A stretch of 64,000 nt of DNA from Steroidobacteraceae bacterium (GCA_050738495.1 JBOHZL010000004.1:21202-85201); one strand, 5' to 3'; positions 42,313 to 60,179 are shown, counted from the stretch's first letter. The notes: generated from the sequence alone by a model not told the origin. Translations and numbers: made by a program.

Positions 42313-42316
42313 GCGC

Positions 42317-43345: not shown

Positions 43346-43355
43346 CCCGATTCCC

Positions 43356-43955
43356 TCAGCCGATGTTCGACAGGCGGAGCAGGCGCTCGAGATCCTCGAG
43401 CAGTCCGCGCGACCGGCCGGTCGCAGGGTAACTCAGGATCAGGCTGCCACGCGGGTCCACTATATATAGGCCGGCGCCGCCACCCGGGGCGGGCGGGAAG
43501 AGATTCCGCAATGCCGCGCCCTCGGGGCCCGGCGCACCGAGCACCAGGAGATCGCGTCCCGGTCCCGCCTGGACATCCGTGCTGCAACAGCCGCCCGAGT
43601 GCAGGAGCACGCGCGTCACGCGCGACATGTTCCGGCCGAGCGCAAGCCGCAGGCGCCGCGACTCGGCGAGCGCGTCCAGGCAGCGGTCGTCGCACTCGCC
43701 CTCGACCAGGTGCACCAGGAACCAGCTTCCGCGCAGCGCGTCCGAGGCGATGACGCCGCCATCGGGCATGAGCAGCGGCGTGAGCGGCAGCGGGCGCGGC
43801 GGCTCGACCAGTTCGCCGTGCTGGACGCTGCCGCCCGGACGCCAGCCCGAGCCGAAATAGATCCAGGCAGCGAAGGCGAGCGGCGCGAAGAAAAGCAGCG
43901 CGACCAGCAGCAAGTGCCGGCGGCCTGCACGCTGTTCGGGGGTCGGCGTCGTCAT
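43356..43955 (-). CDS. cox-cluster membrane-anchored hypothetical protein with CxxxC motif (SCO-like?)
   Basis: From MTTPTPEQRAGRRHLLLVALLFFAPLAFAAW (one TM), then ...WFLVHLVEGECDDRC..., reminiscent of the SCO1/SenC thioredoxin fold. ATGA overlap with SURF1. Confidence 0.5.
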   Translation of the reverse strand: MTTPTPEQRAGRRHLLLVALLFFAPLAFAAWIYFGSGWRPGGSVQHGELVEPPRPLPLTPLLMPDGGVIASDALRGSWFLVHLVEGECDDRCLDALAESRRLRLALGRNMSRVTRVLLHSGGCCSTDVQAGPGRDLLVLGAPGPEGAALRNLFPPAPGGGAGLYIVDPRGSLILSYPATGRSRGLLEDLERLLRLSNIG

Positions 43956-44683: not shown

Positions 44684-44704
44684 CCGGGCAAGCGGGGCGG
44701 ACAC

Positions 44705-44920
44705 ATGACGGGCGTCAAGTGGCTGGTGCTGGCCATCTTCTTCGCGATCATCCTGAGCCTGGTATCGGCCATGGTGCACCTGGTGCACGACTACAAGGGC
44801 GAATCGCGGCGCATGGTGCGCGCGCTCACGGTCCGCATCGGCCTGTCCATCGTACTGTTCATCGTGCTGTGGATGACCTGGAAGTTGGGCCTGATCGAGC
44901 CGCACGGCGTCGGCGGCTGA
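44705..44920 (+). CDS. twin-transmembrane-helix small protein (DUF2909)
   Basis: 71 aa, MTGVKWLVLAIFFAIILSL...RMVRALT.RIGLSIVLFI. Divergent from SURF1, as is usual in cox clusters. Confidence 0.75.
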   Translation: MTGVKWLVLAIFFAIILSLVSAMVHLVHDYKGESRRMVRALTVRIGLSIVLFIVLWMTWKLGLIEPHGVGG

Positions 44921-44924
44921 GGGC

Positions 44925-45455
44925 TCACCCGGCCGCGCCGCGGAGCGCGCGGATCGACGGCAGGTTGCGCCAGGCGCCTGCGACATCCATCCCGAACCCG
45001 AACACGAAGCGGTCCGGCACCGCGACACCGGTGAAGTCCGCCGCGATCGCAGCGGGCGTCCCGCGTTCCTTGACCGCGAAGGCGGCGATCAGCACCTCGA
45101 GCGCGCCCTGTTCGATGAGTCGCGCGCGGATGGTCGCGAGCGTGCGACCCTCGTCCAGGATGTCGTCGAGCAGCAGCACGACGCGGCCGCGCACCGGTTC
45201 GTGCGGACCCGCGATCCATACCAGTTCTCCGCCGGTCGTGTTCTCGCCGTAGCGGCGCACGTGCACATAGCTGCAGTCGAGCTCGAAGCCGAGCCGCGGC
45301 AGCAACTGGCCCGCGAACACCTGGCCGCCGTTCATCACGGTGATCGCGACCGGCCGCCGCCCCGCGAGCCGGGCATCGATCGACGCCGCCATGCGATCGA
45401 GTGCGGCCTGCACCTCGGCGGCACTCACGACTTCGTCCGATGGGGGCATGCTCAT
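44925..45455 (-). CDS. hpt: hypoxanthine-guanine phosphoribosyltransferase
   Basis: 176 aa. PRPP-binding motif VVLLLDDILDEGRTL and ...PDRFVFGFGMD... Only the last 176 codons of the 575-aa track ORF are used. Confidence 0.85.
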   Translation of the reverse strand: MSMPPSDEVVSAAEVQAALDRMAASIDARLAGRRPVAITVMNGGQVFAGQLLPRLGFELDCSYVHVRRYGENTTGGELVWIAGPHEPVRGRVVLLLDDILDEGRTLATIRARLIEQGALEVLIAAFAVKERGTPAAIAADFTGVAVPDRFVFGFGMDVAGAWRNLPSIRALRGAAG

Positions 45456-46504
45456 GGCTTGATGACACTGCGGACAGCGTCGCGGAATGCCTCCAGGTCG
45501 TCCAGCACGCCATTGATCGCCGCGGCCTCGAGCGGCACGACGCGGCTGACCACGCCTGACAGGTCGAGCTCGCCCCGCACGACGAGGTCCAGCAGCTCCT
45601 GAAGCTCGGTCGCCAGGTGATCGGAGACGCCGATGATCTCCGCTTCCTTGTTCAGGATGTCGCGATAGGGCGAGACGGCGATGCGCTGATCCGTCAGCCC
45701 GGCGAGTGCCGCCCGCCCGCCGATGGCCAGGACCTCGATGGCCTGTTCCATGGTGCGCGGAAGTCCGATCAGCTCGAGCGAGGCATCGACACCCCGCCCG
45801 CCGGTCAGCCGCCGGATTTCCCGGACAGGATCCGCGCTGCGCGCGTCCACGGCGACGGCGCCCAGGCCTGCCGCGAGCACGAGCTTCGCAGCATTGAGGT
45901 CCACGGCAAACACTTCGGCGGCGCCGAGCGACCTCGCGAGCTGGATCGCAGAGACGCCGAGTCCGCCGGCGCCGAACACTGCAACGGTATCGCCATGACC
46001 GACCCGGGCTTTCCGCAGGGCATGCAGCGCGGTCGCGGAGGAACACATCAGGATGGCGCCGTGCTCGAACGGAATGGCGGCCGGCAACGGCAGCGCATTG
46101 CGCGCCGGAACGCAGACCAGCTCCGCAAAGCCGCCGTCCCGATGCTTGCCGATCATCTGGCCGGTGGCGCAGAACTGTTCCGCGTCGGCGCGGCAATGCA
46201 CGCATTCGCCGCAGCTGACGAGATAGTGCAGGCAGACGCGATCGCCCGCGCCGAGATGCGAGACGCCGGCGCCGACGCGGTCGATGACGCCCGCCACCTC
46301 GTGGCCGAGCGTGCAGGGATGGCGGGTCGACCCGACACCCGAGCGGTAATGCGCATCGGAGTGGCAGATGCCCGCCGCCCGGACGCGCACGACGACCTCG
46401 TCGCTGCCCGGTTCCGGGGCTTCGAGGGTCGCCTCGACCAGGCGCTCGCCGGGCGCGCGCAGGCGGATGGCCCGGTACTTGGTCTGCCGCATGCCGTTGT
46501 TCAA
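45452..46504 (-). CDS. zinc-dependent alcohol dehydrogenase family protein
   Basis: GICHSD, GHEVAGV, a C..C..C structural Zn cluster (CGECVHCRADAEQFC) and an NAD fold VFGAGGLG. The start could also be M5 (46492). Confidence 0.85.
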   Translation of the reverse strand: MNNGMRQTKYRAIRLRAPGERLVEATLEAPEPGSDEVVVRVRAAGICHSDAHYRSGVGSTRHPCTLGHEVAGVIDRVGAGVSHLGAGDRVCLHYLVSCGECVHCRADAEQFCATGQMIGKHRDGGFAELVCVPARNALPLPAAIPFEHGAILMCSSATALHALRKARVGHGDTVAVFGAGGLGVSAIQLARSLGAAEVFAVDLNAAKLVLAAGLGAVAVDARSADPVREIRRLTGGRGVDASLELIGLPRTMEQAIEVLAIGGRAALAGLTDQRIAVSPYRDILNKEAEIIGVSDHLATELQELLDLVVRGELDLSGVVSRVVPLEAAAINGVLDDLEAFRDAVRSVIKP

Positions 46505-46619
46505 GCAGCGATTCTAGCGGCACCGATGAGGCTGCGACGAAGCGGATGCCGCCCGCGCCGGGGCGTTGCGCGGTTTCCGCCGCCGGCCGGTCCCTGTTCA
46601 TAGAATCACCGTGCAAGGA

Positions 46620-46650
46620 GGGGAAAAGGCCGCAACCCTTTCCCCTTTTC
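46620..46650 (+). terminator. intrinsic-terminator-like hairpin inside the RND operon leader (possible attenuator)
   Basis: GGGGAAAAGG-ccgcaa-CCCTTTCCCC followed by TTTTC. Lies between a TAGAAT -10-like hexamer (46601-46606) and the GTG start at 46686. Confidence 0.35.
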
Positions 46651-46685
46651 ACGCATCAGTGCAAGTACGGCAGGGAGAAGCCCGC

Positions 46686-49600
46686 GTGAACCTGACGGCA
46701 AGATCGCTGAAGAGCCCGATCGGCGTGGCGGTCGGAGTGGGGCTCATCCTGGTGCTCGGCATCGTCAGCCTGATCCGGCTGCCAGTGCAGCTATTCCCGG
46801 ACATCGACGAGCCGGTCGTCACGATCTTCACCAACTGGCGCGCCGCCGCGCCGGCCGAGATCGAGTCCGAGCTGATCGAGCCGCAGGAGCAGGCGCTCCG
46901 CGGGCTGGCCGGCCTGCAGGAAATCCAGTCCTTCGCCAACGCGGGCGGCGCTTTCATCAATCTCGAGTTCGCGATCGGCACCGACATGGGCCGCACGCTG
47001 ATCGACGTGATCGCGCGCATGAACCAGCTCCCGCCGCTGCCGCGGGATGCCGATGCGCCGCGCATCTCGCTCGGCGAGAATGGCGGCAACGGGCCGAACG
47101 AGACCCTGTCCTGGTTCTTCGTGCAGCTGAAACCCGGGACACCAGGCCCGGTCGAGAACTACCGGCGCGACATCGAGGACCTGTTCCGCTCGCGGATCGA
47201 GTCGATCCCGGGCGTCGGCACGGTCAATGTCAATGCCGGCGCGCCCGACGAGCTGCGCATCGAATTCGATCCCTACCGCGCCGCCGAGCTCGGCATCCCG
47301 ATACCGTCCATCGTCGGAGTCGCCGGCAGCGCCGACGACGTTTCGGGCGGTTTCGCGGAGCTCGGCCGGCGGCAATACACGCTGCGCTTCGCCGGGCGCT
47401 ACCGGCCGGCGGACCTGGGCGAGCTGGTGCTCGACTGGCGCGACGGGCGCCCGGTCAGGCTCGCCGACGTCGCGACCATCTCGGTCGAGCGCGGTGACCG
47501 CAACTCGCTGGCGGTGCAGAACAACAACCCGGCGATCGCGATCCAGATCATCAAGGAATCCGGCGCGGACGTGCTCGCGACCCTGGAGGCCGTGAAGACC
47601 GAGATCGGCGAGCTGCGCGAGGGACCGCTCGCCGAGATGGGGCTCGCGATCGAGCAGTCCTTCGACCCGTCGGTGTTCATCAATCAGGCGCTCGGCCTGG
47701 TCGGCGGCAACCTGCTGGCCGGCATCATCCTGGCGATCGGCGTGCTGTGGCTGTTCCTGCGCCAGTTCCGCTCGACGCTGCTGGTGGCCGTCGCGATCCC
47801 GGTGTCGGTGCTGGCGACGGTGCTCATCATGCTGGTCACCGGCCACTCGCTGAACGTGATCTCGATCGCCGGCATCGCGTTCGCGGTCGGCATGACGCTC
47901 GACGCCGCGACCATCGTGCTGGAAAGCATCCTCTCGCGGCGCGAGCAAGGGCTCTCCGCCGCGCAGGCTGCGCTCGAGGGGGCGACCCGCGTGTGGCCGG
48001 CGCTGTTCGCCTCGACCCTGACGACGGTCATCGTGTTCCTGCCCGTGATCTTCATGGACAACGTCGAGGGCCAGCTCTTCGCGGACCTTGCGCTCACGAT
48101 TTCGGTGGCCATCGCGATGTCGCTGGTCGTGGCGATGACGGTGCTGCCGGTCGCGGCCGCGCGCTGGCTGAAGACCTCGGAAGCCACGCGCCGGGCGAGC
48201 GAATGGCCGCGCCGCCTCGGCGAGCGCATGGCCGCCCTGACCGACAGCCCGCGCCAGCGGCAGGTCACCATCGGCCTGTGCCTGGTCGCGCCCGCGGTGC
48301 TCACCTGGCTCCTGCTGCCGCCGATCGACTACCTGCCGCCGGTCAAGCGCGACGCGATCGACGGCTTCTTCCAGTTTCCGCCCGGCATGAACGTGGATGC
48401 GATCGAGAGCGAGGTCGTGGAGCCGATGGTGAGGCGTCTCGAGCCCTACATGGCCGGCGAGAAGGAACCGAGGCTCAAGAACTACTACATCCTGATCTTC
48501 CCCGGCGGCGGCACGATCGGCGCGCGCCCGCTCGATCCCTCGAAGATCGACGAGCTCGGCAAGATCGTGAAAGAGGAGATCACCAGCGGATTCCCCGACC
48601 TGGAGGTATTCGCGCAGCAGGGCAACCTGTTCGGCGGCTTCGGCGACGGGCGCAACATCGAAGTGCGCCTGCAATCCTCGGACTACGACGCGTTGCTGGC
48701 CACCGCGCGGAAGGCGCAGGACATCATCACCGAGAAGATGCCGGGCGCGGAGGTGCGCTCGTTCCAGGACCTGGAGCTCGCCGAGCCGGAGCTGCGCCTG
48801 GTGCCGGACGACCGGCGGATCAGCGAGTCGGGCTGGAACCGCGCGAATGTCGCGACGGTGGTGCGCGCGCTCGGCGACGGCATCTGGGTCGGCGAGCATT
48901 TCGACGGCGAGCGCCGGCTCGACATGATCCTGCGGGCGCAGGGCTGGGAAAGCCCGGACGCGCTCGCGGCGGTGCCGGTCGCGACCCCCACGGGTGGCGT
49001 CGTGCGCCTGGGCGAGCTGGTATCGATCGAGCCGACCGTCACCAGCACCGGGCTTCGCCGGGTGGACGGCCGGCGCACCATCGGCATCAATGTCATCGCG
49101 CCACCGGGCATGTCCCTGCAGCAGGCGATGCAGAAGCTCGAGACGGACGTGGATCCCGCGATCCGGCCGCTGTTGCCGCCCGACGGCGGTATCCGCTATG
49201 CCGGCGATGCGGGCAGCCTGGAGACCGCGCTCGCGGACATGCGCGTCAACATCGGCCTCGCGCTGCTCGTGCTGTTCCTGTTGATGGCGGCGCTGTTCCG
49301 CTCGGCCAGGGACAGCCTGCTCGTCATGCTGACCGTGCCGCTCGCGAGCCTGGGCGGCGTGCTCGGCATCCGGCTTCTGAACCTGTTCACGCCGCAGACC
49401 CTCGACATGCTGACGATGGTCGGCTTCATCATCCTGCTGGGCGCCGCCGTCAACAACGCGATCCTGCTGGTCGACAGCACGCGCTCGGCGGAGCGCGCGG
49501 GCATGGACCGCCGCGACGCCGTGCGGAGCGCGCTCGAGCAGCGCACGCGGCCGATCTTCGCGACTTCGCTCGGCCAGCTCGCCGGCCTCCTGCCGATGAT

Positions 49601-49781
49601 CCTCGTGCCCGGGCCGGGCGCGGCGCTCTATCGCGGCCTCGGCACGGTCATCGCCGGCGGCATGCTGCTCAACACGTTATTCATGCTGGTGCTGCTGCCG
49701 GCCCTGTTGCGCCTCGGCGAGCCCGCTGCCAGCGCCGCAGCCGAAGCCGCGCCCCGCGGCGCTGTCGAGGAAGGTGCCTGA
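46686..49781 (+). CDS. RND efflux transporter permease (AcrB/AcrD/AcrF family)
   Basis: ~1031 aa from a GTG with GGGAGAAG RBS. N-terminal ...IRLPVQLFPDIDEPVVTI..., 12 TM in a 1+5/1+5 layout with two large periplasmic loops. Confidence 0.88.
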   Translation: MNLTARSLKSPIGVAVGVGLILVLGIVSLIRLPVQLFPDIDEPVVTIFTNWRAAAPAEIESELIEPQEQALRGLAGLQEIQSFANAGGAFINLEFAIGTDMGRTLIDVIARMNQLPPLPRDADAPRISLGENGGNGPNETLSWFFVQLKPGTPGPVENYRRDIEDLFRSRIESIPGVGTVNVNAGAPDELRIEFDPYRAAELGIPIPSIVGVAGSADDVSGGFAELGRRQYTLRFAGRYRPADLGELVLDWRDGRPVRLADVATISVERGDRNSLAVQNNNPAIAIQIIKESGADVLATLEAVKTEIGELREGPLAEMGLAIEQSFDPSVFINQALGLVGGNLLAGIILAIGVLWLFLRQFRSTLLVAVAIPVSVLATVLIMLVTGHSLNVISIAGIAFAVGMTLDAATIVLESILSRREQGLSAAQAALEGATRVWPALFASTLTTVIVFLPVIFMDNVEGQLFADLALTISVAIAMSLVVAMTVLPVAAARWLKTSEATRRASEWPRRLGERMAALTDSPRQRQVTIGLCLVAPAVLTWLLLPPIDYLPPVKRDAIDGFFQFPPGMNVDAIESEVVEPMVRRLEPYMAGEKEPRLKNYYILIFPGGGTIGARPLDPSKIDELGKIVKEEITSGFPDLEVFAQQGNLFGGFGDGRNIEVRLQSSDYDALLATARKAQDIITEKMPGAEVRSFQDLELAEPELRLVPDDRRISESGWNRANVATVVRALGDGIWVGEHFDGERRLDMILRAQGWESPDALAAVPVATPTGGVVRLGELVSIEPTVTSTGLRRVDGRRTIGINVIAPPGMSLQQAMQKLETDVDPAIRPLLPPDGGIRYAGDAGSLETALADMRVNIGLALLVLFLLMAALFRSARDSLLVMLTVPLASLGGVLGIRLLNLFTPQTLDMLTMVGFIILLGAAVNNAILLVDSTRSAERAGMDRRDAVRSALEQRTRPIFATSLGQLAGLLPMILVPGPGAALYRGLGTVIAGGMLLNTLFMLVLLPALLRLGEPAASAAAEAAPRGAVEEGA

Positions 49782-50899
49782 TGAACAGTCTGCAGACCCG
49801 CCGTTCCGTTGCATGGAGCGCGGCGCTGGCCGCGCTGGCCGTGTCCTCCCTCGCGGCGAGCGCGGCCGGGGCGCAGCAGGCCGAGCAGCCGCCTGCCCCG
49901 GTCACGGTCGCAGCGGTCGTCAACGGCCGTCTCGCCGCGATGGTCACGGCGACCGGCACCGTCATCAGCCGCAACGACGCCCGGCTCGCGGCGGAAGTGA
50001 CGGGCCGCCTCGACTGGGTCGCGGAGCCCGGCACCAAGGTGGCGAAGGGCGCGGCGCTTGCGCGCGTGGATGCCCGGGCACTGGAGCTGACGCTGCGCGA
50101 GAACGACGCCGCGATCGCGCGGCTCGCCGCGAACGCCGAGCTCCTCGGCACCCAGCTCGCGCGGCTCAATGCACTGCCGGCCGGGATCGCGTCGAAGAGC
50201 CAGATCGACGAGGCCGCGGCGCGGCTGGCCATGGCGAGGCACGAGCTCGAGCAGTCGCGCGCGACGCGCGACAACACGCGCCACCTGATCGAGCGCGCGG
50301 TGATCCGCGCGCCATTCCCCGGCCACGTGGTCGAGCGCATCCGCCAGCTCGGCGAGTTCGTGTCGGCCGGCACCGAGGTGCTGCGCCTGACCGACACCGG
50401 CAACGTCGAGGTGGTCGCGCGCGCGCCGGTCTCAGAAGCCGGTCACCTGGCGGTCGGCCAGGCGGTCACCGTGCGCGGCACTGCGCGCGAGGCCGAGAGC
50501 AGAATCCGCGCCATCGTGCCGGTCGGCGACGAGCGCTCGCGGATGATCGAGGTGCGGGTCGCGATGAACGGCGCCGGCTGGCCGATCGGGTCGGCAGTGC
50601 GCGTGGACCTGCCGGCGGCCCGGCAGGGTGCCGGTCTGCTGGTGCCGCGCGACGCCGTCATCGTGCGCGCCGACGGTGCGCACGTTTACCGCGTCGGCAA
50701 GGGCGATGTCGCCGAACGCATCGCAGTGCGGGTCGGCAACGGCGATTCGAATCGCGTCGAGATCACGGGCCGTCTGGCGGCCGGCGACCGGGTGGTCGTG
50801 CGCGGCGGGGAACGCCTGCGGCCCGGACAGGCGGTGAAGATCGCCGCGAATCCGACCTCGGCGCTCGCCATCTCGCGAACTCCGAAGCCGAGGACATGA
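49781..50899 (+). CDS. RND efflux periplasmic adaptor (membrane fusion protein)
   Basis: 372 aa from MNSLQTRRS with a signal sequence. Lipoyl/hairpin/beta-barrel pattern (…AEVTGRL.WV.EPG..V.KGA.LARVD…IRAPF.G.V…). The ATG shares 1 nt with the permease stop. Confidence 0.85.
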   Translation: MNSLQTRRSVAWSAALAALAVSSLAASAAGAQQAEQPPAPVTVAAVVNGRLAAMVTATGTVISRNDARLAAEVTGRLDWVAEPGTKVAKGAALARVDARALELTLRENDAAIARLAANAELLGTQLARLNALPAGIASKSQIDEAAARLAMARHELEQSRATRDNTRHLIERAVIRAPFPGHVVERIRQLGEFVSAGTEVLRLTDTGNVEVVARAPVSEAGHLAVGQAVTVRGTAREAESRIRAIVPVGDERSRMIEVRVAMNGAGWPIGSAVRVDLPAARQGAGLLVPRDAVIVRADGAHVYRVGKGDVAERIAVRVGNGDSNRVEITGRLAAGDRVVVRGGERLRPGQAVKIAANPTSALAISRTPKPRT

Positions 50900-50903
50900 C
50901 AGC

Positions 50904-51806
50904 TTGAGGTTCCCCGCTCTTGCGATGAGTGCCCTAGGCGCACTCGCCGCCCTGCCGATTCATGCGGCGCAGACCATCGACGATGCGCCTCCGACTCCGA
51001 GGCCGGTTCTGCCGGTGCAGGATGCGTATCCGCACGTGTCTCGGCTGGGTCTGGTCGTTTTTCAGAGCAATCGTGTCGGCGGCTCGAAGCTGTTCGTCTC
51101 TCGACTCGATGGCAGCGAACTACGGCAGTTGACCAGCGGCCCTGGCTCCGACGCGACGCCGATCTGGTCGCCGGACGGATCGAGCATCGTATTCGCCGCC
51201 GATCGGGGCGGCAATGAAGACCTGTGGTTGATCCGTGCCGATGGCTCCGAACTGCGCAAGCTGACGGACCATCCGGGAAGCGACAGCCATCCGAGCTGGT
51301 CGCCGGACGGCCGCCAGGTCGTTTTCTGCTCGACGCGCGGGGACGGCGAGAACGACGACATCTATGTCATCGATGTGGACGGATCCGGGCTCCGGCGGCT
51401 CACGGACAACGGGTTGCACTGGGACACATTCCCATCCTTTTCACCGGATGGGCGCTCGATCCTGTTCCGGCGGCTGCTCCGCGAACGCCGACCCGAAGGG
51501 ACATTGGCCAACTCGGAAGTCATGGTGATGAGCGCCGACGGTACTGGCGTCGTCAACCTGTCGCGGCATCCCTGGTTCGACGGCTGGCCGAGCTGGTCTC
51601 CGGATGGACGGCGGATTGCGTTCAGCTCCAACCGGTCGGACGCATACCAGATCTACGTCATGAACGCCGACGGATCCGGGATGATCCGGGTCGTCGACAG
51701 CCCCTACACCGACAATCGGCCGCAGTGGCTGCCGGACGGAAGCGGGCTCATTTTCAATCGCGAGCGCGAGGGTCGGATCGAAATACTGCAGGTCCGGACG
51801 CCCTGA
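50904..51806 (+). CDS. periplasmic PD40/TolB-like beta-propeller repeat protein
   Basis: Signal peptide, then repeated ...P.WSPDG..I.F...R.G..D.... blades (at least five WSPDG/FSPDG units). TTG start at 50904, or ATG at 50925. Confidence 0.8.
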   Translation: MRFPALAMSALGALAALPIHAAQTIDDAPPTPRPVLPVQDAYPHVSRLGLVVFQSNRVGGSKLFVSRLDGSELRQLTSGPGSDATPIWSPDGSSIVFAADRGGNEDLWLIRADGSELRKLTDHPGSDSHPSWSPDGRQVVFCSTRGDGENDDIYVIDVDGSGLRRLTDNGLHWDTFPSFSPDGRSILFRRLLRERRPEGTLANSEVMVMSADGTGVVNLSRHPWFDGWPSWSPDGRRIAFSSNRSDAYQIYVMNADGSGMIRVVDSPYTDNRPQWLPDGSGLIFNREREGRIEILQVRTP

Positions 51807-51840
51807 TTCAGTCAAGTCCGCGCCGGGCGTGGCGCTGCGC

Positions 51841-53646
51841 TCAGTCGTCGTCGACGACGTCGATGCGCATGCCGGACAGCGGCTCGGAACCGCTGCCCGC
51901 ATAGCCGCTGCCCAGATAGACGTTGAAGCTCTTGGTCGGCTCCTGTTCCGTGTCATTGGCGAGCGGCACGAACACGGTGCGTTGGCGCTCGCCCGGGGCG
52001 AACTCCTCGACCCGCCGGCCGAGATCGGCGTAATCCCGCTCGGCGATCGCCGAGCCTTCGTCGGTCCACCAGGCGATCGCAGCGCGGCCGCTCGCATTCC
52101 CGGTGCGGCGGATGACGATGCGCGCGGCGACCTCGCTTTCGCGGACCGTCGCGACCGGCTGCAGGAAGCTGAACCGCGCCGGTCCTGACGACGCCTCGGC
52201 GGGCGCCGGCTCCGTCGTTTCGACCCCGACCGGCGCGGCTTCGGCGCCGGCAGGCGGGGATTCGGGCGATGCTGCCGCGAGCGCTGGAACGGGCGCATTC
52301 GCAGCGGCCGCTGCAGGCGGCCCGGCACTCGTGGCCGCTTCATCGGCGGGCGCCGGCGCGGCACCGGGCGTCGCGTCGACGATCGGCGCATCCTCGACCG
52401 GCGCGGCCGCCACGACCGGTTCTTCGGCCGCCGGTTCCGCGGCGGGCGCCGCTGCGCGTTCATTGAGCCTGGCGTCGATGTCCGCCATCAGTCCGGTGGC
52501 CTGGTCGCGCACCTGATCCTGGTAGATGAAGGCGACCGCGCCGATCCCGACCAGCAGGATCAGCAACATCAGCATGCCGGCGATGCCGGAGCGGCGCGGC
52601 TCGCCGTAACCCATGGCGCGCTCCGCGGTCAGCGTCGCGGCACTCATGCGCGGCGGCGGAGGTGCCGGCGCCGGCGCGATCGGTGCCGGTGCCGGGGTGC
52701 GGCTCGGCTCGGGCGCGCCCGAGACGACAGTGCGAAGCTTCTCGATGCCGGTGACGCCGAACTCGTCGAGAAACTGCGCCACGGTCGGCGTGCGGTGCTC
52801 GCGCTGCAATTCGAGCGCGCCGACCAGCGCGCGCCACTGTCTTGCCGGCAGGCGCGCGATCGGCGCGAGCTCCAGCTCGGCGCGATAAGCCTCTTCCGGC
52901 GAGTTGGCATTGAACGGATGCCGGCCGGAGAGCATCTCGTAGGCGAGGCAGGCGAGTCCGTACACGTCGTCGCGGCTGTCGGGCCGCGGCGGCGCCATGT
53001 AATCCACGTCGTCGATGTCACCCTGAGCGGCGGCCGGCCATTCCGGCGGCACGATGTCGAGCAGCTTGACCTCGTAGCCGAAAGTCACGAGGGCGTTCTC
53101 CGGCTTCAGGTTGCCGTGCACGATCCGCTTGGCGTGCAGGTATTGCAGCGCGTCGCCGACTGCGCGGATGACGGGAGCCGCCTCGTCGAGCGGAAGCTGC
53201 GCCACGTCGTTGAGCACGAAGCGCAGCGATGCGCTCTCCAGCAATTCCAGCACCAGGAAATAGCGACTGCCGTCGTGGCCGTGCTCGAGCAGGCGCACGA
53301 TGTTCGGATGCGAGATCGCGTGCAGCGTCGCCGCGCCACGCGTGAACTCTTCGGCGAAGCCGGGGCCCGCGACGAGGTCTTCGTCGAGGAGCTGGACCGC
53401 GACACGGCGCTCGATGCCCGAATTCCGGTTCAGCTCGTCCTGCGCTTCGTAGACGATGCCCAGCCGTCCGCGGCCGAGCCGCGCGCTCAGGCGATAACGC
53501 TCGTCGACCAGCCGATCGAACGGCGCCGACTCGTTTGTGGCGTCCTTTCTCTTGACGGGTTCCACTATGAATTTGTCCCGTGGCTCGCCCGGAATCCTGT
53601 GCACGCGCAGCGGCTGCGTCTGGATATGACTCTGATCGTTCAGCAT
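51841..53646 (-). CDS. transmembrane Hanks-type pseudokinase with C-terminal Calx-beta domain
   Basis: From MLNDQSH (GGGAG RBS). Kinase fold with VAVQ instead of VAIK, HGNLKPEN instead of H(R/G)DxKPxN, and DIV instead of DFG. One TM (GIAGMLMLLILLVGIGAVAFI), an Ala/Pro-rich linker and a Calx-beta pattern ...IAWWTDEGSAIAERDYADLGRRVEFAPGERQRTVFVPLANDTEQEPTKSFNVYL. Confidence 0.75.
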   Translation of the reverse strand: MLNDQSHIQTQPLRVHRIPGEPRDKFIVEPVKRKDATNESAPFDRLVDERYRLSARLGRGRLGIVYEAQDELNRNSGIERRVAVQLLDEDLVAGPGFAEEFTRGAATLHAISHPNIVRLLEHGHDGSRYFLVLELLESASLRFVLNDVAQLPLDEAAPVIRAVGDALQYLHAKRIVHGNLKPENALVTFGYEVKLLDIVPPEWPAAAQGDIDDVDYMAPPRPDSRDDVYGLACLAYEMLSGRHPFNANSPEEAYRAELELAPIARLPARQWRALVGALELQREHRTPTVAQFLDEFGVTGIEKLRTVVSGAPEPSRTPAPAPIAPAPAPPPPRMSAATLTAERAMGYGEPRRSGIAGMLMLLILLVGIGAVAFIYQDQVRDQATGLMADIDARLNERAAAPAAEPAAEEPVVAAAPVEDAPIVDATPGAAPAPADEAATSAGPPAAAAANAPVPALAAASPESPPAGAEAAPVGVETTEPAPAEASSGPARFSFLQPVATVRESEVAARIVIRRTGNASGRAAIAWWTDEGSAIAERDYADLGRRVEEFAPGERQRTVFVPLANDTEQEPTKSFNVYLGSGYAGSGSEPLSGMRIDVVDDD

Positions 53647-53758
53647 ACCGGCTCCCAATATGCCACCCGACGCAAGGGAAATCCTGTCGGACGATGCTGG
53701 CATCGGCGAGCGTCCGCGGTGTCCCGGCAACGTCGCTTTTTGGCGACGCGCCGACGCG

Positions 53759-55459
53759 CTAGCGCAGCTGCACCGTGATGCGGTCCACGTCCCCGATACG
53801 AGCCTGGCCGGCCACCCTTTCGATCGTGACGGCGAACTCTCGTTCACCGGATTCGGCCTGGCCCGGGACGATGGGTATGAAGATCGTGCTGGCGAGCTGG
53901 CCTTCGGTGAACGGCACCACGCCGCTCAGGGGGCCGGAGAAATGCCGGCCGGCCACGGCCGTCCTTTCATGGATCCGCCAGGCCAGCTGGGTAATGCCGG
54001 CCGCCGGTCCCGAGCGCCTGACTGGCAGCGCCGCCAGGTTGGCTGCGCTGCTGACCGCCATCCGGGAGGTCGAGAACGACAGGTACTGGCGCTCCGCGAG
54101 GGTCGCATCGGCCACCGGCGGCTGCGCAATCGCCGCGATCGACGCAGCCAGGCCCCGCATGGCATCCACCTGATTCCCCGCCAGGCCCGCCGGGGCCGAG
54201 GCGAATTGCGCCGGCTGGTCCACCGACTGGGTTACGGCCGGCGTCGCCGCCAGGGCGGGCGGCACGGGCGCCTCATAAAGGATGAATCCCGCCACCGACA
54301 GCACGGTCGCAAGCACTGGCAGCACGGCCAGTGCGAGCGGTACCCGGAGTGCGCGCACCCGCGCGCGGGCAGGAGCTGCAAGCGGCGCCATCGCCTTCGC
54401 CGCCGTCTCAGCGGCAAGCGGTGCCGGGGCCGCCCGCGGTTCCTGCAGCGCGTCGATCAGCTCGTGGACGCTGGCCGGCCGGTCCGCGCGCCGCGCGGCG
54501 AGGCCGCGTGCCAGGGCTGCCGTGCGTGCGCTGGCCAGGCTGCTGCCGACCGACGGTTTCGCACCGCGGGCGATGGCGGTGCGTGCATCGACCCGTCCGA
54601 AGGGATGCTTGCCGGTCAGGAGCTCGCAGGCGACGCAAGCCAGGCTGAAGACATCGTCGCGCGGTTCCGGCGTCATGCCCGCGAGCAGCTCGGGACTCGC
54701 GTAGGCCGGGGTCGCCAGGATCGGGCCACGCAGGCCGGTGCCGCTGTCGCCGCCGAAGTCGAGAAGCCGCAGCTCGCCCGACCGCAGCAGGAAGAAATTG
54801 CCGGGCTTGATGTCGCCGTGCACGACGCCGTGACCGTGTGCGGTCGCGAGCGCATCGGCGGCGGCGGACAGGATGGCGAGCGCGGTCCGTTCCGGAATCT
54901 GTGTTCCGAGCCGGCGATGCAGGTAGCGGGCGAGCGTCTCGCCCTCCAGCAGCTCCATCACTTCGAACCAGTGGCCGTCGTGGCAATCGAGATCGAAGAC
55001 GCGCACCACGTTCGCATGCGTGAACAGCCGCAGTCCGCGAAAGCCGCGCTTGAGTCTCTCGACGGCGGGTCCCGATCCGCGCAGCTCCGGTCGCAGCACC
55101 TTGATGGCGACGTGCGCGAGCTCGCTCGCCGTATCCTCGACGCGCAGGTCGCGGGCGCGATAGATGATCGCGCAGCCGCCGCGCCCGAGCACGGACTCGA
55201 TCCGGTAGCGATCGCGAAGTGTCGCGCCGACGTGGAATGGATCGACTTCCTGGCGTGCGGCGTCGGCCAGCAGCATCCGCTGGACGGTCAGCTCCGGCAG
55301 CCGCGGCGCTGACGCGTTGTCGATCGCCATCGTGTCCGGAAACGACTCGACCTCGATCTGCATCGTGTCCGGGTACAATTCGACGGTGGCGTCGTCGTCG
55401 CGCGACGTGGCGACGCCGCGCGCATATCTGAAAGTGCCGAAATTGGACTCGACCGCCAT
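53759..55459 (-). CDS. transmembrane Ser/Thr protein kinase with C-terminal Calx-beta-like domain
   Basis: LGRGGCAIIY G-loop, VAIKVL, HGDIKPGN, LLDFGG, PAYASPE. One TM (LALAVLPVLATVLSVAGFILY). The C-terminal ~100 aa have Calx-beta-like strand periodicity (...FTEGQLASTIFIPIV...EREFAVTI). Confidence 0.8.
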   Translation of the reverse strand: MAVESNFGTFRYARGVATSRDDDATVELYPDTMQIEVESFPDTMAIDNASAPRLPELTVQRMLLADAARQEVDPFHVGATLRDRYRIESVLGRGGCAIIYRARDLRVEDTASELAHVAIKVLRPELRGSGPAVERLKRGFRGLRLFTHANVVRVFDLDCHDGHWFEVMELLEGETLARYLHRRLGTQIPERTALAILSAAADALATAHGHGVVHGDIKPGNFFLLRSGELRLLDFGGDSGTGLRGPILATPAYASPELLAGMTPEPRDDVFSLACVACELLTGKHPFGRVDARTAIARGAKPSVGSSLASARTAALARGLAARRADRPASVHELIDALQEPRAAPAPLAAETAAKAMAPLAAPARARVRALRVPLALAVLPVLATVLSVAGFILYEAPVPPALAATPAVTQSVDQPAQFASAPAGLAGNQVDAMRGLAASIAAIAQPPVADATLAERQYLSFSTSRMAVSSAANLAALPVRRSGPAAGITQLAWRIHERTAVAGRHFSGPLSGVVPFTEGQLASTIFIPIVPGQAESGEREFAVTIERVAGQARIGDVDRITVQLR

Positions 55460-55559
55460 GCGTGAACCTCGATCCCGATCATGCGCGTTCGATCGACGGA
55501 GAGAAAGTCGGACATCGCCTCATGTGAGGCCTATATGTCAAATGAGACGATCGCGTCGG

Positions 55560-56180
55560 TCAGTCGAGATAGCGCTCGATCTTGCGGAACAGGTCGGCGC
55601 GGTCGACGAGGTCGGTGAGCCAGTCGAGCCGGTCGGTCTCGAGCTTGAGCGCCGGCGACAGGTCGTAGCGCCTGAACCAGTCTTCGTAGAGCCGGTTGAG
55701 CCGGCTCAGGTAGTTCACCGGGATGTCCCGCTCCATCGCGCGCCCGCGCAGATGGATGCGCTTCCTGAGCGTGCGCACCGGGCAGGAGAGCTGGATCATC
55801 AGGTCAGGCGGGCGCAGTGTCGCGCTGATCGAGCGGTATAGCTGCCAGTAGACCTTGAAGTCGCGCGCGTCGATGGTGCGCTGGCGATGCAGGTTCTTCG
55901 CGAAGATTTCGGCATCCTCGTAGATCGTGCGGTCCTGCACCACCGTGCCGGGCTCGTCCTGCAGCTCGAGCTGCAGCCGGAACTTGTGGGTGAGGAAGAA
56001 GAGCTGCGACCTGTAGGCCCAGGCCTTCATGTCGCGGTAGAAGTCGGCGAGGTAGGGATTCTGCTCGTTCGGCTCGAAGAACGGCTTGATGCCGTAGCGC
56101 CGGCACAGGAACTTCGTCAGCTCGGTCTTGCCGGCGCCGATGTTGCCGGCAATCGCGATGAAGCGCTTGCCGGCAGCCAC
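55560..56180 (-). CDS. deoxynucleoside kinase
   Basis: 206 aa. P-loop IAIAGNIGAGKT, ...FEPNEQNPYLADFY..., ...DRTIYED..FA... dNK family blocks. Lies 7 nt downstream of coxC. Confidence 0.85.
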   Translation of the reverse strand: MAAGKRFIAIAGNIGAGKTELTKFLCRRYGIKPFFEPNEQNPYLADFYRDMKAWAYRSQLFFLTHKFRLQLELQDEPGTVVQDRTIYEDAEIFAKNLHRQRTIDARDFKVYWQLYRSISATLRPPDLMIQLSCPVRTLRKRIHLRGRAMERDIPVNYLSRLNRLYEDWFRRYDLSPALKLETDRLDWLTDLVDRADLFRKIERYLD

Positions 56181-56187
56181 GCCGGCT

Positions 56188-57072
56188 CTAGAGCCAGTAG
56201 ACGAAGATGAACAGTCCCAGCCAGACCACGTCGACGAAGTGCCAGTACCAGGCGACCGCCTCGAAGGCGAAGTGGCGCTGCGGCGTGAAGTGGCCCTTCA
56301 TCGTGCGCAGCCAGATCACCAGCAGCATGATCGCGCCGACCAGCACGTGCAGGCCGTGGAAGCCTGTCAGCATGAAGAAAGTGGAGCCGTAGATACCGGT
56401 GCCGAGCTGCAGCCCGAGTTCGTGGTACGCGTGGCCGTATTCCCAGATCTGCACCCCGAGGAAGGTGAAGCCGAGCAGCCAGGTCACCGCCAGGAACACT
56501 TTCAGGATGCCGCGATGGGCGCTCTTCAATGCGTGGTGCGCGATCGTCAGCGTGAGGCCGGAAGTCAGAAGGAGCGCCGTATTGAGCGCGGGCACGCCGA
56601 AGGCGGGAATGATCTCGTAGCTCCCGTCGTCGCGCGGACTCAATACGGCCGGACCATTGCTCGGCCAGCCCGCCTCGAATTCGGGCCAGAGCAGGCCGGT
56701 GACCGCCTTGCTGCCCTCGCCGCCGAGCCAGGGGATCGACAGCTGACGCGCGTAGAAAAGCGCGCCGAAGAACGCGGCGAAGAACATCACCTCGGAAAAG
56801 ATGAACCACATCATTCCCATGCGGAACGAGCGGTCGACCTGCTCGTTGTAGAGCCCGGCCTGGCTTTCGCCGATCACCTGGCCGAACCAGAGGAAGAAGA
56901 GCGTGAACAGCAGCGCGAATCCGATCCCGAGCACCCAGCCGCCGCTTGCGGCGCCATTCAGCGTCGCGGCCGCGCCGGCCATCAGCACGAAGAGCGAAAC
57001 CGAGCCGAAGAATGGCAGCCGGCTGCCGTGCGGGAAGTAGTACTGTTCCGTCGACTGCTCGAGCTGCGCCAT
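56188..57072 (-). CDS. coxC: cytochrome c oxidase subunit III
   Basis: 294 aa, 7 TM, ...GFHGLHVLVG... and ...VAWYWHFVDVVWL.LF... motifs. Confidence 0.92.
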   Translation of the reverse strand: MAQLEQSTEQYYFPHGSRLPFFGSVSLFVLMAGAAATLNGAASGGWVLGIGFALLFTLFFLWFGQVIGESQAGLYNEQVDRSFRMGMMWFIFSEVMFFAAFFGALFYARQLSIPWLGGEGSKAVTGLLWPEFEAGWPSNGPAVLSPRDDGSYEIIPAFGVPALNTALLLTSGLTLTIAHHALKSAHRGILKVFLAVTWLLGFTFLGVQIWEYGHAYHELGLQLGTGIYGSTFFMLTGFHGLHVLVGAIMLLVIWLRTMKGHFTPQRHFAFEAVAWYWHFVDVVWLGLFIFVYWL

Positions 57073-57084
57073 CGATGTCCTCCG

Positions 57085-57630
57085 TCAAGTCCTGCCGCCG
57101 GCGACGCGCTCGACATCATAGAAGGCGTAGGACAGCGTCAGGCGGTCGATCTCGGCCGGCAGCTCACGGTCGACCACGAAGCGCACCGCCAGTTCGCGCT
57201 CTTCGCCGCTCTCGAAATGCTGTGGCGTGAAGCAGAAGCACTCGGTCTTCAGGAAATAGCGGGTCGCGCGCATCGGCGCGACGCTCGGCACGGCCTGGCC
57301 GGTGATCTTCCGCCCGGAGAGGTTGCGGGCGCGGTAGTGCGCTTCGTACAGCCGCCCGGGGTGCACGTCCATGGTCGCGGCCACCGGGGCAAACTCCCAG
57401 TCGCCGCCCGGCACCGACGAGGTGAACTCGACCGTGACCGTGCGTGCGATCCCGGGCTGCGTCGTGTCGACGCTAGCGGCGCGGCTCAGGCGGTCGCGTG
57501 ATCCGACGCCGGTCACTTCGCAGAACACGTCGTAGAGCGGCACCAGCGCGAAGCCGAATGCGAAGCTGCCGGCCGCCATCAGCAGGAGCCGGGCGGTGAG
57601 CCCGTGATTGGAACCGCGCGGCGGGTTCAA
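57085..57630 (-). CDS. ctaG: cytochrome c oxidase assembly protein Cox11/CtaG
   Basis: ...FGFALVPLYDVFCEVTG... and ...FLKTECFCFTPQ... copper-site motifs. Proposed TTG start at 57630 overlaps the stop of the small upstream ORF (TTGA). The start is uncertain. Confidence 0.8.
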   Translation of the reverse strand: MNPPRGSNHGLTARLLLMAAGSFAFGFALVPLYDVFCEVTGVGSRDRLSRAASVDTTQPGIARTVTVEFTSSVPGGDWEFAPVAATMDVHPGRLYEAHYRARNLSGRKITGQAVPSVAPMRATRYFLKTECFCFTPQHFESGEERELAVRFVVDRELPAEIDRLTLSYAFYDVERVAGGRT

Positions 57631-57734
57631 GCGCCGCGCTCCAGGACCCGCAGCAGCAGGTACAGCAGGTAGACGGAGATTGCGAGCGCGCCGAGCGCGA
57701 TCGCCATGCGCAGGTTGCCGGAACGCTGGCTCAC
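57627..57734 (-). CDS. cytochrome oxidase small assembly protein (35 aa, single TM)
   Basis: VSQRSGNLRMAIALGALAISVYLLYLLLRVLERGA. GTG preceded by GGAGG and overlapping the coxA stop (GTGA). Sits in the coxA-cox11 gap, where RefSeq annotates such mini-proteins. Hidden inside a spurious 221-aa track ORF. Confidence 0.55.
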   Translation of the reverse strand: MSQRSGNLRMAIALGALAISVYLLYLLLRVLERGA

Positions 57735-59314
57735 CGGACCTCCGGCGGCTTTTCGAAGGTGTGATACGGCGCCGGCGACGGCACCGTCCACTCGAGGCCG
57801 TGCGGCCAGTCCCAGACCCCGGCTGTGGCACGCTCGCCGCCCCGCACGCACTTGACGATCACCCAGACGAACAGGAGCTGCGAGAGTCCGAAGCCGAAGC
57901 CGCCGACCGAGGAGACCATGTTCCAGTCGGCGAACTGGGTCGCGTAGTCCGGAATGCGGCGCGGCATGCCGGCCAGCCCGAGGAAATGCTGCGGGAAGAA
58001 CAGCACGTTGATGAAGACAGCCGACAGCCAGAAGTGCCACTTGGCGAGCACCATGTCGTACATGTGGCCGGTCCACTTCGGCAGCCAATAGTAGACGGCT
58101 GCCATCAGCGCGAACACCGAGCCCGGCACCAGCACGTAGTGGAAGTGCGCCACCACGAAATAGGTGTCGTGGTACTGGTAGTCGGCCGGCACCATCGCGA
58201 GCATCAGCCCGGAGAAGCCGCCGATCGTGAACAGGAACAGGAACGCGAGCGCGAACAGCATCGGCGGCTCGAAAGAGAGCGAGCCGCGCCACATCGTGGC
58301 GGTCCAGTTGAAGATCTTCACGCCGGTCGGCACCGCGATCAGCATCGTGGACAGCATGAAGAAGAGCTGCCCAGCGAGCGGCATGCCGACCGTGAACATG
58401 TGGTGCGACCAGACGATGAACGACAGGAAAGCAATCGAGGCGATCGCGTAGACCATCGCCTCGTAGCCGAAGATCGGCTTGCGCGAGAAGGTCGCGATGA
58501 CCTCCGACACGATGCCGAACGCCGGCAGGATCATGATGTAGACCTCGGGATGCCCGAAGAACCAGAACACGTGCTGGTACAGCACCGGGTCGCCGCCGCC
58601 GGCCGCGTTGAAGAAGCTGGTATGGAAGTAGTAGTCGGTCAGCAGCATCGTGACGCCGCCGGCGAACACCGGCATCACCGCGATCAGGAGATACGCCGTG
58701 ATCAGCCAGGACCAGGAGAAGAGCGGCATCTTCAGGAGCGTCATGCCGGGTGCGCGCATGTTGACGATGGTCACGATGACGTTGATGGCGCCCATTATCG
58801 AGGAGGCGCCCATCAGGTGGATCGCGAAGATCGCCATCGGGAATGCCTGCCCGGTCTGCAGCACCAGCGGCGGATAGAACGTCCAGCCGGCGGCCGGCGC
58901 GCCCCCGGGCATGAAGAACGTCGACAGCAGCAGCAGGAAGGCGAAGGCCAGCAGCCAGAAGCTGAACAGATTCATGCGCGGCAGCGCCATGTCGGCCGCG
59001 CCGATCTGCATCGGGATCATCCAGTTCGCGAGCCCGACGGTCGCCGGCATCACCGCGCCGAACACCATGACCAGCGCGTGCATGGTGGTCATCTGGTTGA
59101 AGCGGATCGGGTCGAGCAGCTGCAGTCCCGGCTCGAACAGCTCGGCGCGGACCATCATCGCGAAAGCGCCGCCCACCAGGAACATCGCGAGCGAAAACAC
59201 CAGGTACATCGTGCCGATGTCCTTGTGGTTCGTCGTCGTCAGCCAGCGCGCGATTCCCTTCGGCGGCCCGTGCGCATGATCGTCGTGACCCGCGGCCGAT
59301 TTACCGTGCGCCAT
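57731..59314 (-). CDS. coxA: cytochrome c oxidase subunit I
   Basis: 527 aa from MAHGKSAAGHDDHAHGPPKGIARWLTTTNHKDIGTMYL. Has the heme/CuB His ligands (…WFFGHPEVYI…, …HHMF…). Confidence 0.93.
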   Translation of the reverse strand: MAHGKSAAGHDDHAHGPPKGIARWLTTTNHKDIGTMYLVFSLAMFLVGGAFAMMVRAELFEPGLQLLDPIRFNQMTTMHALVMVFGAVMPATVGLANWMIPMQIGAADMALPRMNLFSFWLLAFAFLLLLSTFFMPGGAPAAGWTFYPPLVLQTGQAFPMAIFAIHLMGASSIMGAINVIVTIVNMRAPGMTLLKMPLFSWSWLITAYLLIAVMPVFAGGVTMLLTDYYFHTSFFNAAGGGDPVLYQHVFWFFGHPEVYIMILPAFGIVSEVIATFSRKPIFGYEAMVYAIASIAFLSFIVWSHHMFTVGMPLAGQLFFMLSTMLIAVPTGVKIFNWTATMWRGSLSFEPPMLFALAFLFLFTIGGFSGLMLAMVPADYQYHDTYFVVAHFHYVLVPGSVFALMAAVYYWLPKWTGHMYDMVLAKWHFWLSAVFINVLFFPQHFLGLAGMPRRIPDYATQFADWNMVSSVGGFGFGLSQLLFVWVIVKCVRGGERATAGVWDWPHGLEWTVPSPAPYHTFEKPPEVR

Positions 59315-60179
59315 GGGTCTGCTCCGTCGTGATCGCGAGCGCCCTGCCGGACGCCGCCGTCTTCTGCTGCTGCAGCCAGGCATCGAACTCCGCCGGGGGC
59401 TTGGCGACGACGACGATCGGCATGAAGCCGTGATCGGCGCCGCACAGTTCCGCGCACTGGCCGCGATACGTGCCGGGCTTGTCCGCATCGACCGAGATCC
59501 ACATCTCGTTGATGAAGCCGGGGACAGCGTCGCGCTTCATGCCGAAGTCCGGCACCCACCAGGCGTGGATCACGTCGTTCGCCGTCAGCAGGATCCGGAT
59601 CTTGACGCCGGTCGGCACGACCAGCGGGTGGTCGACGTCGAGCAGGTAGTTCGGGACCGTCCCGGGGTCGATGCCGGATCCGCGTTGCCGCGCAAGGCCG
59701 CTCTCGCGTGTGAGCCGGCTGAAGAAAGCCACTTCATGGCCCAGGTACTCGTAATGCCATTGCCACTGGTATCCGGTGACCTTGACGGTGAGTCCGGAAC
59801 CGGAAGTGTCTTCGATCTTGATGACCTTGGCGACGGCGGGGATCGCCATGCCGACCAGGATCAGCACCGGGATGATGGTCCAGGTCGCCTCGAGCCGCGC
59901 GTTGTGCAGGAATTTCTGGTCGGGCACCGCGCCGCGCGATTTCCGGAACCGGACCATCGCGACGATCATGGCGCCGAAGGTGACGACGGCGATGGCCGTG
60001 CAGATCCAGAACATGACCATGTGCATGTCGTAGATCTCGCGCGACAGCTCGCTGACGCCCTCGGGCATGTTGATCCCGCCCCAGTCCGCGCGGGCCGGGA
60101 CGGCGACGAGCGCCGCGAGGGCGCTGCCGACGATCGACCAGCTCGATTTTTCGATCGCGCTCTTCACCGGATCTCCCAT
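59301..60179 (-). CDS. coxB: cytochrome c oxidase subunit II
   Basis: 292 aa, two TM, CuA site ...DVIHAWWVPDFG...GQCAELCGADHGFMP... 14-nt overlap with coxA. Confidence 0.92.
   Translation of the reverse strand: MGDPVKSAIEKSSWSIVGSALAALVAVPARADWGGINMPEGVSELSREIYDMHMVMFWICTAIAVVTFGAMIVAMVRFRKSRGAVPDQKFLHNARLEATWTIIPVLILVGMAIPAVAKVIKIEDTSGSGLTVKVTGYQWQWHYEYLGHEVAFFSRLTRESGLARQRGSGIDPGTVPNYLLDVDHPLVVPTGVKIRILLTANDVIHAWWVPDFGMKRDAVPGFINEMWISVDADKPGTYRGQCAELCGADHGFMPIVVVAKPPAEFDAWLQQQKTAASGRALAITTEQTHGAR

Follow-up and report, generated by a model that had tools for sequence, protein, structure and literature searches.

A predicted family of membrane pseudokinases with Calx-beta ectodomains in uncultured Gammaproteobacteria, and a paralogous Hanks-type kinase encoded beside one member

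Receptor-like bacterial kinases such as PknB of Mycobacterium tuberculosis (with a PASTA sensor), PknS of Xanthomonas citri, and PpkA of Pseudomonas aeruginosa combine an N-terminal Hanks-type kinase domain in the cytoplasm with an extracytoplasmic sensor, the two being connected by a juxtamembrane linker and a single transmembrane helix. Two adjacent genes, A and B, in a stretch of 64,000 nt from a Steroidobacteraceae bacterium, an uncultured gammaproteobacterium of soil or water (GCA_050738495.1 JBOHZL010000004.1:21202-85201), encode proteins of the same layout. The whole stretch, with a G+C content of ~68%, is referred to as the window, and positions are counted from its start. In place of PASTA or another described module, however, A and B have as sensor one Calx-beta domain at the end of a long Ala/Pro tether, and both proteins score far below the equivalog cut-off of PknB/Stk1. 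Further differences from PknB-type receptors are the catalytic loop, which in A is HGD (non-RD) and not HRD, and an N-terminus with a DPT motif. No architecture that joins Calx-beta to Hanks or eukaryotic-like kinases was described in the literature searched, and the original prediction, made from the DNA of this locus, had not recognised the arrangement as a characterised one. It had also taken A for an active kinase and B for a pseudokinase. Judged by sequence, A is a kinase with predicted phosphotransfer activity, and B meets the definition of a pseudokinase, its substitutions being conserved across its family. All evidence presented here is computational, and all source sequences are metagenomic. 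The two genes and their predicted domains are arranged as follows.

53759..55459, minus strand: gene A, 566-aa single-pass membrane Hanks-type Ser/Thr kinase, non-RD (HGD) (open reading frame [ORF], Pfam, NCBIfam, alignment)
54440..55207, minus strand: kinase domain of A, residues about 85-340 (PF00069 with 97 bits, BLASTP against B)
54278..54334, minus strand: transmembrane helix of A, residues 376-394 (hydrophobicity, Arg-rich N-terminal flank)
53762..54088, minus strand: periplasmic Calx-beta-fold domain of A, residues 458-566 (Pfam, BLASTP, model, fold search)
51841..53646, minus strand: gene B, 601-aa single-pass membrane pseudokinase (ORF, Pfam, hidden Markov model [HMM] alignment, orthologues)
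52753..53502, minus strand: pseudokinase domain of B, residues 49-298 (HMM alignment, orthologue comparison)
52525..52581, minus strand: transmembrane helix of B, residues 356-374 (hydrophobicity, AlphaFold2 model)
52186..52521, minus strand: periplasmic spacer of B, 112 aa (composition, orthologue alignment, model)
51844..52185, minus strand: Calx-beta domain of B, residues 488-601 (Pfam, alignment to NCX1 CBD2, orthologues)

Both ORFs are present where they had been predicted, and the layout ascribed to the two proteins, with a Hanks-type kinase domain and a C-terminal Calx-beta domain separated by one transmembrane helix and an Ala/Pro-rich spacer, was borne out by Pfam, hydrophobicity, and a fold model of A. 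In BLASTP comparisons of A with B, the kinase domains share 31% identity (E 7e-29) and the C-terminal domains 26% (E 4e-7). Both kinase domains exceed the Pfam gathering cut-off for Pkinase (PF00069, 31.7 bits), A with 97.3 bits and B with 84.2 bits. The nearest NCBIfam model for either protein is PknB/Stk1, which covers the kinase domain only and is matched with 158 and 131 bits, far under the equivalog cut-off of 450. A single hydrophobic segment occurs in each protein, at residues 376-394 of A and 356-374 of B; its N-terminal flank is rich in Arg, and its C-terminal flank is Ala/Pro-rich sequence of low complexity. Because of the Arg-rich flank, the positive-inside rule would put the kinase domain of both A and B in the cytoplasm and the Calx-beta domain in the periplasm. 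The spacer of B (35% Ala, 16% Pro, 10% Glu) is poorly conserved, with 30% identity. The two proteins are paralogues that share one receptor-like design and diverged long ago.

The pseudokinase status of B is apparent from an HMM alignment to Aurora kinases (Aurora kinase C, E = 6.8e-24), in which Gln85, Asn179, and Asp197 of B occupy the positions of the beta3 Lys, the catalytic Asp, and the DFG Asp. The motifs that had been quoted for B (VAVQ, HGNLKPEN, and LLDIV) are all present, and the exchanges of Lys for Gln and of Asp for Asn indeed fall on the canonical positions. The proposed change of DFG to DIV holds for the triplet as such, but the metal-binding Asp is kept. The key positions of B are thus Arg61 in the glycine-rich loop (G-loop), Gln85 in beta3, Gly104 in alphaC, His-Gly-Asn179, Asn184, and Asp197-Ile-Val. 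Among the 120 best homologues, which constitute the close set of B orthologues, Lys is never found at beta3, which has Gln, Leu, Thr, or Ile throughout; Asn replaces the HRD Asp in 117, and Gly the alphaC Glu in 119. The DFG triplet reads D[IV]V with an invariant Asp, and the G-loop reads G-x-G-R-L-G with an invariant Arg61. A genomic comparison of 34 B loci with the canonical kinases found in the same scan (L035-L074) gave a clean split at these positions. Arg61 occurs in every B locus, and the alphaC Gly and the Asn of HRD in nearly all (variants include L015, L026, and L032), whereas the canonical kinases all have Gly, Lys, Glu, Asp, and Asp-Phe at the matching sites. The orthologue in locus L015 (6001-7704) retains the catalytic-loop Asp (HGD) and has Thr at beta3 and Val at the alphaC position. 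Mean identity across the B orthologues is 65% in the kinase domain and 61% in the Calx-beta domain but 30-43% in the linkers, which points to purifying selection on both domains. As the conserved G-loop, Asn184, and Asp197 leave space for nucleotide binding, catalytic inactivity of B stays a prediction.

Seven families of bacterial pseudokinases have been published, namely ActPs1-3, GLW, CP1, DYD, and DLHK (PMC12599244; bioRxiv 10.1101/2025.01.12.632604). The B family is likewise conserved and pseudokinase throughout, but its motifs (HGN, VA[IV][QLT], and D[IV]V) differ from those of all seven in a comparison with the published descriptions. The GLW family has GLW at HRD and poly-Leu at beta3, whereas B has HGN and Gln, Leu, or Thr at these sites and retains the DFG Asp. 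The DYD family resembles B in that the alphaC Glu is missing and the ATP site is partly kept, but its beta3 residue is Arg instead of Gln, Leu, or Thr. CP1 and DLHK have no transmembrane helix, of which B has one, and ActPs1-3 are actinobacterial, whereas B is gammaproteobacterial. Calx-beta is mentioned in neither of the two papers. MviN of M. tuberculosis, an ActPs3 member, is a membrane-anchored pseudokinase that PknB, an active Hanks kinase, uses as scaffold and substrate and that recruits a protein with an FHA domain via phospho-Thr (PMC12599244). MviN differs from B in that its pseudokinase domain is part of a fusion with a lipid II flippase-like protein and in having no Calx-beta domain; all three of its catalytic residues are missing, and it does not bind ATP. 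Among eukaryotic proteins, HER3 (HRN) and the JH2 domain of JAK (HGN) carry an Asp-to-Asn exchange in the catalytic loop and retain ATP-site scaffolding, and in both cases the dead module allosterically regulates an active paralogue, that is, HER2/EGFR for HER3 and JH1 for JH2. B shares this exchange together with the preserved scaffolding of the ATP site. Unlike the HER3 and JAK modules, however, A and B are separate bacterial polypeptides encoded by usually unlinked genes, B also lacks the beta3 Lys, and any interaction between the two is putative.

The conclusion with the better support assigns B to an uncharacterised, large family of membrane pseudokinases whose Calx-beta ectodomain bears a putative Ca2+ site. 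When 1.84 billion cluster representatives were searched exhaustively with HMMER, 926 proteins had an E value of 1e-30 or better. Motifs were classified in the best 150 of these, among which 99 kinase-plus-Calx proteins were classifiable, and in 97 of the 99 the beta3 Lys, the HRD Asp, or both are missing. These 97 mostly retain the G-loop Arg, the DFG Asp, and the acidic cluster of the Calx-beta domain. B-type proteins form at least about 100 clusters at 50% identity, all from uncultured Gammaproteobacteria. The sources of ten members that were looked up are exclusively metagenomes or metagenome-assembled genomes (MAGs), with Gammaproteobacteria as the sole taxonomic label, and the close orthologues derive from MAGs of Steroidobacteraceae and Woeseiaceae. 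In distant members the catalytic Asp is replaced by Gln, Glu, Lys, Ala, or Ser. The distant members also fall into sub-types, such as one with a beta3 His, a retained Asp, and Lys at the position of Asn184.

The Calx-beta domain of B scores 47.1 bits with PF03160, well above the cut-off of 27 bits. The Calx-beta pattern recognised in B by the original prediction was thus correct, except that one Glu had been dropped from the quoted string (RRVEEFAP, not RRVEFAP). The C-terminal domain of A, which had been described as a more diverged relative, is below this cut-off with 19.7 bits (E = 9e-4), and its assignment to Calx-beta is confirmed only by the predicted fold. An AlphaFold2 model of the C-terminal 115 residues (40 homologues) is a beta-sandwich with a predicted local distance difference test score (pLDDT) of 94.5. 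In a Foldseek comparison of this model with the PDB, the top 32 matches were all Calx-beta domains (template modelling [TM] score 0.78-0.88, E down to 2.7e-9). They include the Calx-beta domain of integrin beta4 and the Ca2+-binding domains (CBDs) CBD1 and CBD2 of NCX1 and CALX, the best at a TM score of about 0.87. Both proteins thus have a Calx-beta fold.

The two domains differ in the residues of the putative Ca2+ site. In CBD2 of NCX, the Ca2+ sites are influenced by D552 and by position 578, and when the domain is free of Ca2+ K585 is paired with E516, D552, and D578; D498-D500 are the equivalent Ca2+ ligands in CBD1, and the change of D552 to His in NCX2 abolishes a Ca2+ site (PMC9820601). 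In an alignment with NCX1 CBD2, Glu503, Asp538, Asp565, and Lys572 of B correspond to E516, D552, D578, and K585. The acidic cluster of B (Glu503, Asp538, Asp541, Asn564-Asp565, Glu569, and the C-terminal Asp599-601) is near-invariant, the acidic Ca2+-site positions, with the terminal DDD, being conserved in 115-120 of the 120 orthologues, and Glu503, Asp538, Asp565, and Asp599-601 in 117-120. A has Ser471, His506, and Gly533 at the ligand positions and no terminal DDD, and its His at the equivalent of D552 is the very change that abolishes a site in NCX2. With these residues, no Ca2+ site is predicted in A. The ectodomain of B may therefore bind Ca2+ or another divalent cation, whereas that of A probably does not. 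In contrast to the CBDs of NCX and CALX, the domains of A and B are predicted to be periplasmic and not cytosolic, occur singly and not in tandem, and are joined to a kinase or pseudokinase and not to a transporter; Ca2+ binding is putative here.

In protein A, Lys120, Asp216, Asn221, the DFG motif (234-236), and SPE (Glu257) are kept, in agreement with 119 homologues, and the motifs that had been listed for A (VAIK, HGDIKPGN, DFG, and SPE) are all present. The whole A family has HGD or HAD in place of HRD, which identifies its members as non-RD kinases.

Both genes belong to a block nested in a cluster for aa3 cytochrome c oxidase (window 40252-59488). One flank of the block consists of coxA, ctaG, and coxC (56188-59488), the other of genes for DUF2909, SURF1, COX15, a LysR regulator, and CyoE (40252-44911). 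The inserted genes encode a deoxynucleoside kinase (dNK), A, B, a PD40 protein, MFP, RND, a Zn-dependent alcohol dehydrogenase, and a phosphoribosyltransferase (PRT). Much of this split-oxidase gene order recurs in the Steroidobacteraceae MAG loci examined.

55560..56180, minus strand: deoxynucleoside kinase (dNK), conserved upstream neighbour (PF01712, 162 bits)

The dNK gene begins 8 bp after coxC, where it is conserved across the family, and is an unusual companion of an oxidase operon. A distant B-type pseudokinase, P0268 (L081 8001-15550; 38% identical), is encoded 13 bp upstream of an operon for a caa3-type oxidase, which contains COX2, a COX1 fusion, Caa3_CtaG, and a cytochrome c gene; genes for a cytochrome bd oxidase lie just upstream. 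P0268 may be a lead to a second, independent link of the B family to a terminal oxidase. A general linkage of B-type genes to cytochrome oxidases was rejected, since four of the five distant contexts are unrelated to oxidases, and with this single linked context the connection is only a lead.

The original prediction had treated A and B as a co-encoded pair. As a conserved unit this pair did not hold up, because A lies between dNK and B in three places only: in the window, in L075/L076 (A 72% and B 73% identical to the window copies), and in L077 (50% and 56%), where A keeps the alphaC Glu. In relatives dNK usually directly precedes B, and in ~25 genomes the gene order is coxC, dNK, B, an optional PD40 beta-propeller protein, MFP, and RND, with A absent. 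The slot between dNK and B is occupied by an ORF resembling a Zn-dependent alcohol dehydrogenase in four genomes (L007, L009, L011, and L029), and no degenerate A-like gene was found in the larger dNK-B gaps of other genomes. This position appears to be a hotspot of gene insertion. Full-length A-like Calx-beta kinases are encoded elsewhere, on other contigs, in at least six B-bearing MAGs (L035, L041, L045, L051, L060, and L071).

In a neighbour-joining tree, the B proteins form a monophyletic clade on a long branch, and the four locus-linked A copies (from the window, P0122, P0124, and P0123) form one subclade inside the canonical Calx-beta kinases. This nesting indicates that A is an old paralogue that was brought beside B and not a recent duplicate. 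A recent tandem duplication was rejected also because A resembles other Calx-beta kinases (38-72% identity) more than it does B (31%). A comparison of the window with L075 gives 72-73% identity for A and B, as compared to 89-91% for RND, CoxC, dNK, and MFP; A and B thus evolve about three times faster than their neighbours, and the divergence among B orthologues is concentrated in the linkers. P0123 (L079, GCA_023265875.1) is an A relative whose gene stands beside a remnant of RND (130 aa, 5085-5477) that is 84% identical to residues ~140-268 of the RND pump in the window, with B, PD40, MFP, and most of RND missing. It also adjoins the genes for PRT, DUF2909, SURF1, COX15, and CyoE. This layout suggests a deletion or a misassembly of the MAG.

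For the relation between the two proteins we put forward a reading that we regard as evenly balanced between right and wrong: B is a sensing pseudokinase, A is a kinase of the sister clade that stands beside it in few lineages, and B modulates or recruits A. B, the conserved element of the two, would probably have kept the kinase fold, perhaps bind nucleotide, and signal without phosphotransfer. In the periplasm its ectodomain would bind Ca2+ or another divalent cation, either as a signal or to hold a ligand-binding shape. A would be a non-RD kinase that has lost its Ca2+ site, was placed beside B in a minority of lineages, and is the source of phosphotransfer. B would then be its sensing, non-catalytic partner, as HER3 is for HER2 or JAK JH2 for JH1. 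In lineages with A beside B a kinase/pseudokinase partnership is plausible, and the heterodimer that the original prediction had proposed for the two might be surmised from the adjacency of their genes.

Several observations weigh against this proposal. The alphaC Glu, found in 117 of the 119 homologues of A, is replaced by Gly139 in A, and this Gly is common only to P0122, the 72%-identical relative. The earlier view that A has all catalytic signatures is thus correct for the quoted motifs but not for this residue, and A may be weak as a kinase. The full-length AlphaFold2 model of B (25 sequences) has a mean pLDDT of 55 and is usable for the transmembrane helix and the Calx-beta domain only. 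In its kinase domain pLDDT is 50-70 and falls below 50 at residues 137-226, so that the integrity of this fold lacks confirmation from structure prediction. Ca2+ binding by B is predicted from the alignment, in which the conserved Lys572 is the equivalent of K585, and a Lys at this position can block Ca2+ binding in some NCX variants (PMC9820601). A is not adjacent at ~30 of the ~34 genomic B loci (Steroidobacteraceae or Woeseiaceae), and no kinase gene was found beside the five distant B-family members. Gene linkage therefore does not define the function of B. Moreover, the ten flanking ORFs scanned include no genes for FHA-domain proteins or PP2C phosphatases.

An alternative is that B functions independently of A and that their adjacency reflects the incidental insertion of a paralogous kinase gene into the variable slot between dNK and B. 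The true partners of B would then be unlinked kinases or non-kinase proteins, possibly tied to the surrounding oxidase cluster. We consider this a realistic possibility, even though we lean against it. It accounts for a slot that, depending on the genome, is empty or filled by an alcohol dehydrogenase or by A, for the gene order from coxC to RND that is kept in ~25 genomes in which the locus has no A, for A-like kinases on other contigs of the same MAGs, and for the distant members that have no kinase gene next to them. The position of P0268 upstream of the caa3-type operon would fit a tie to oxidases, but P0268 has the one context among the five distant ones that shows such linkage. Furthermore, the adjacency of A and B is also seen in at least two lineages in which the two proteins have only 50-56% identity to those of the window, and the locus-linked A copies are monophyletic, which argues for retention rather than a recent accident.

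Other explanations concern B itself. It is quite unlikely, but conceivable, that B is an atypical active enzyme that binds ATP through Arg61, Asn184, and Asp197 and performs a non-canonical transfer, comparable to the relocated Lys of WNK and POMK or the other chemistry of SelO and SidJ. In favour, Arg61, Asn184, Asp197, and the glycines of the G-loop show little or no variation, few parts of the protein are better conserved than the pseudo-active site, and a precedent for compensatory basic residues in the G-loop has been published (PMC12599244). However, Asn takes the place of the catalytic base in 117 of the 120 orthologues, with Gln, Glu, Lys, Ala, or Ser there in more distant members, the alphaC Glu and the Glu of APE are missing, and the activation segment is short. 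The beta3 residue also varies (Gln, Leu, Thr, Ile, or His), which suggests that no single chemistry has been selected for. Sequencing error had been named at the outset as a possible source of the B substitutions. Such an error, or one of assembly, or a decaying pseudogene, has a negligible probability: the ORF of 601 aa is intact, the same changes occur in ~120 orthologues and in >100 independent assemblies, and the domains are 61-65% identical with many invariant positions while the linkers reach 30-43%. The recurrence of identical substitutions and the conservation of the domains rule this explanation out.

The N-termini of both proteins contain Thr motifs.

55310..55399, minus strand: acidic Thr motifs of A (DDDATVEL, YPDTMQIE, and FPDTMAID; residues 21-50) (motif count in family N-termini)
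53605..53637, minus strand: conserved N-terminal peptide of B (DQSHIQTQPLR) (orthologue alignment)

The 11-aa repeat reported for A at 55310-55375 exists and is visible in the DNA as the 12-mer CCGGACACGATG, which occurs twice, 33 nt apart. It supplies two extra copies of the motif [DE]-P/A-T-x-x-[LIV], of which the N-terminus of A has three. In the N-termini of the A family this motif was observed 83 times, versus 14.8 expected from shuffling. The N-terminal consensus of the B family is M[FI]DPTQTQPLR. The Asp-Pro-Thr motifs of A and B are candidate phosphoacceptor or docking sites.

The start of gene B at 53646 (MLNDQSHIQTQPL) agrees with this conserved N-terminus of the orthologues, and a longer ORF from an upstream GTG at 53847 was rejected because it does not. 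A and B are separated by a gap of 112 bp, and each gene has its own Shine-Dalgarno sequence. A scan for promoters and terminators in 51500-56400 found no promoter-like sites, and its sole terminator-like hairpin is on the plus strand and thus irrelevant to the minus-strand genes A and B. Rfam and tRNA scans of the window were both empty. Elsewhere in the window, an islet of low GC content (7688-10560; GC 0.56 versus ~0.68) contains genes for a Gp49-like (HigB/RelE-type) toxin (9730-10101) and an HTH_37 antitoxin (9428-9727), and also GFA, DUF924, and DUF5076 genes.

Bacterial pseudokinases have scarcely been studied by experiment, and B adds a further conserved family to the seven published. 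Its predicted signature is unusual in combining a G-loop Arg, HGN, D[IV]V, and the loss of the beta3 Lys with an ectodomain whose metal site looks intact. A wider interpretation, which we consider unlikely, is that the B type represents a large, undescribed family of receptor pseudokinases that sense Ca2+ or another divalent cation in the periplasm via an NCX-CBD-like Calx-beta domain on a tether spanning the periplasm, act as non-catalytic conformational switches, and are linked to oxidases in two unrelated arrangements. If this is true, the oxidase linkage (to the aa3 cluster in Steroidobacteraceae and to a caa3-type oxidase in L081) would point to a control of respiration or of oxidase assembly. 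The few genomes with a predicted active paralogue beside B would lend themselves to the question whether pairs of receptor kinases and pseudokinases are used by bacteria as they are by eukaryotes.

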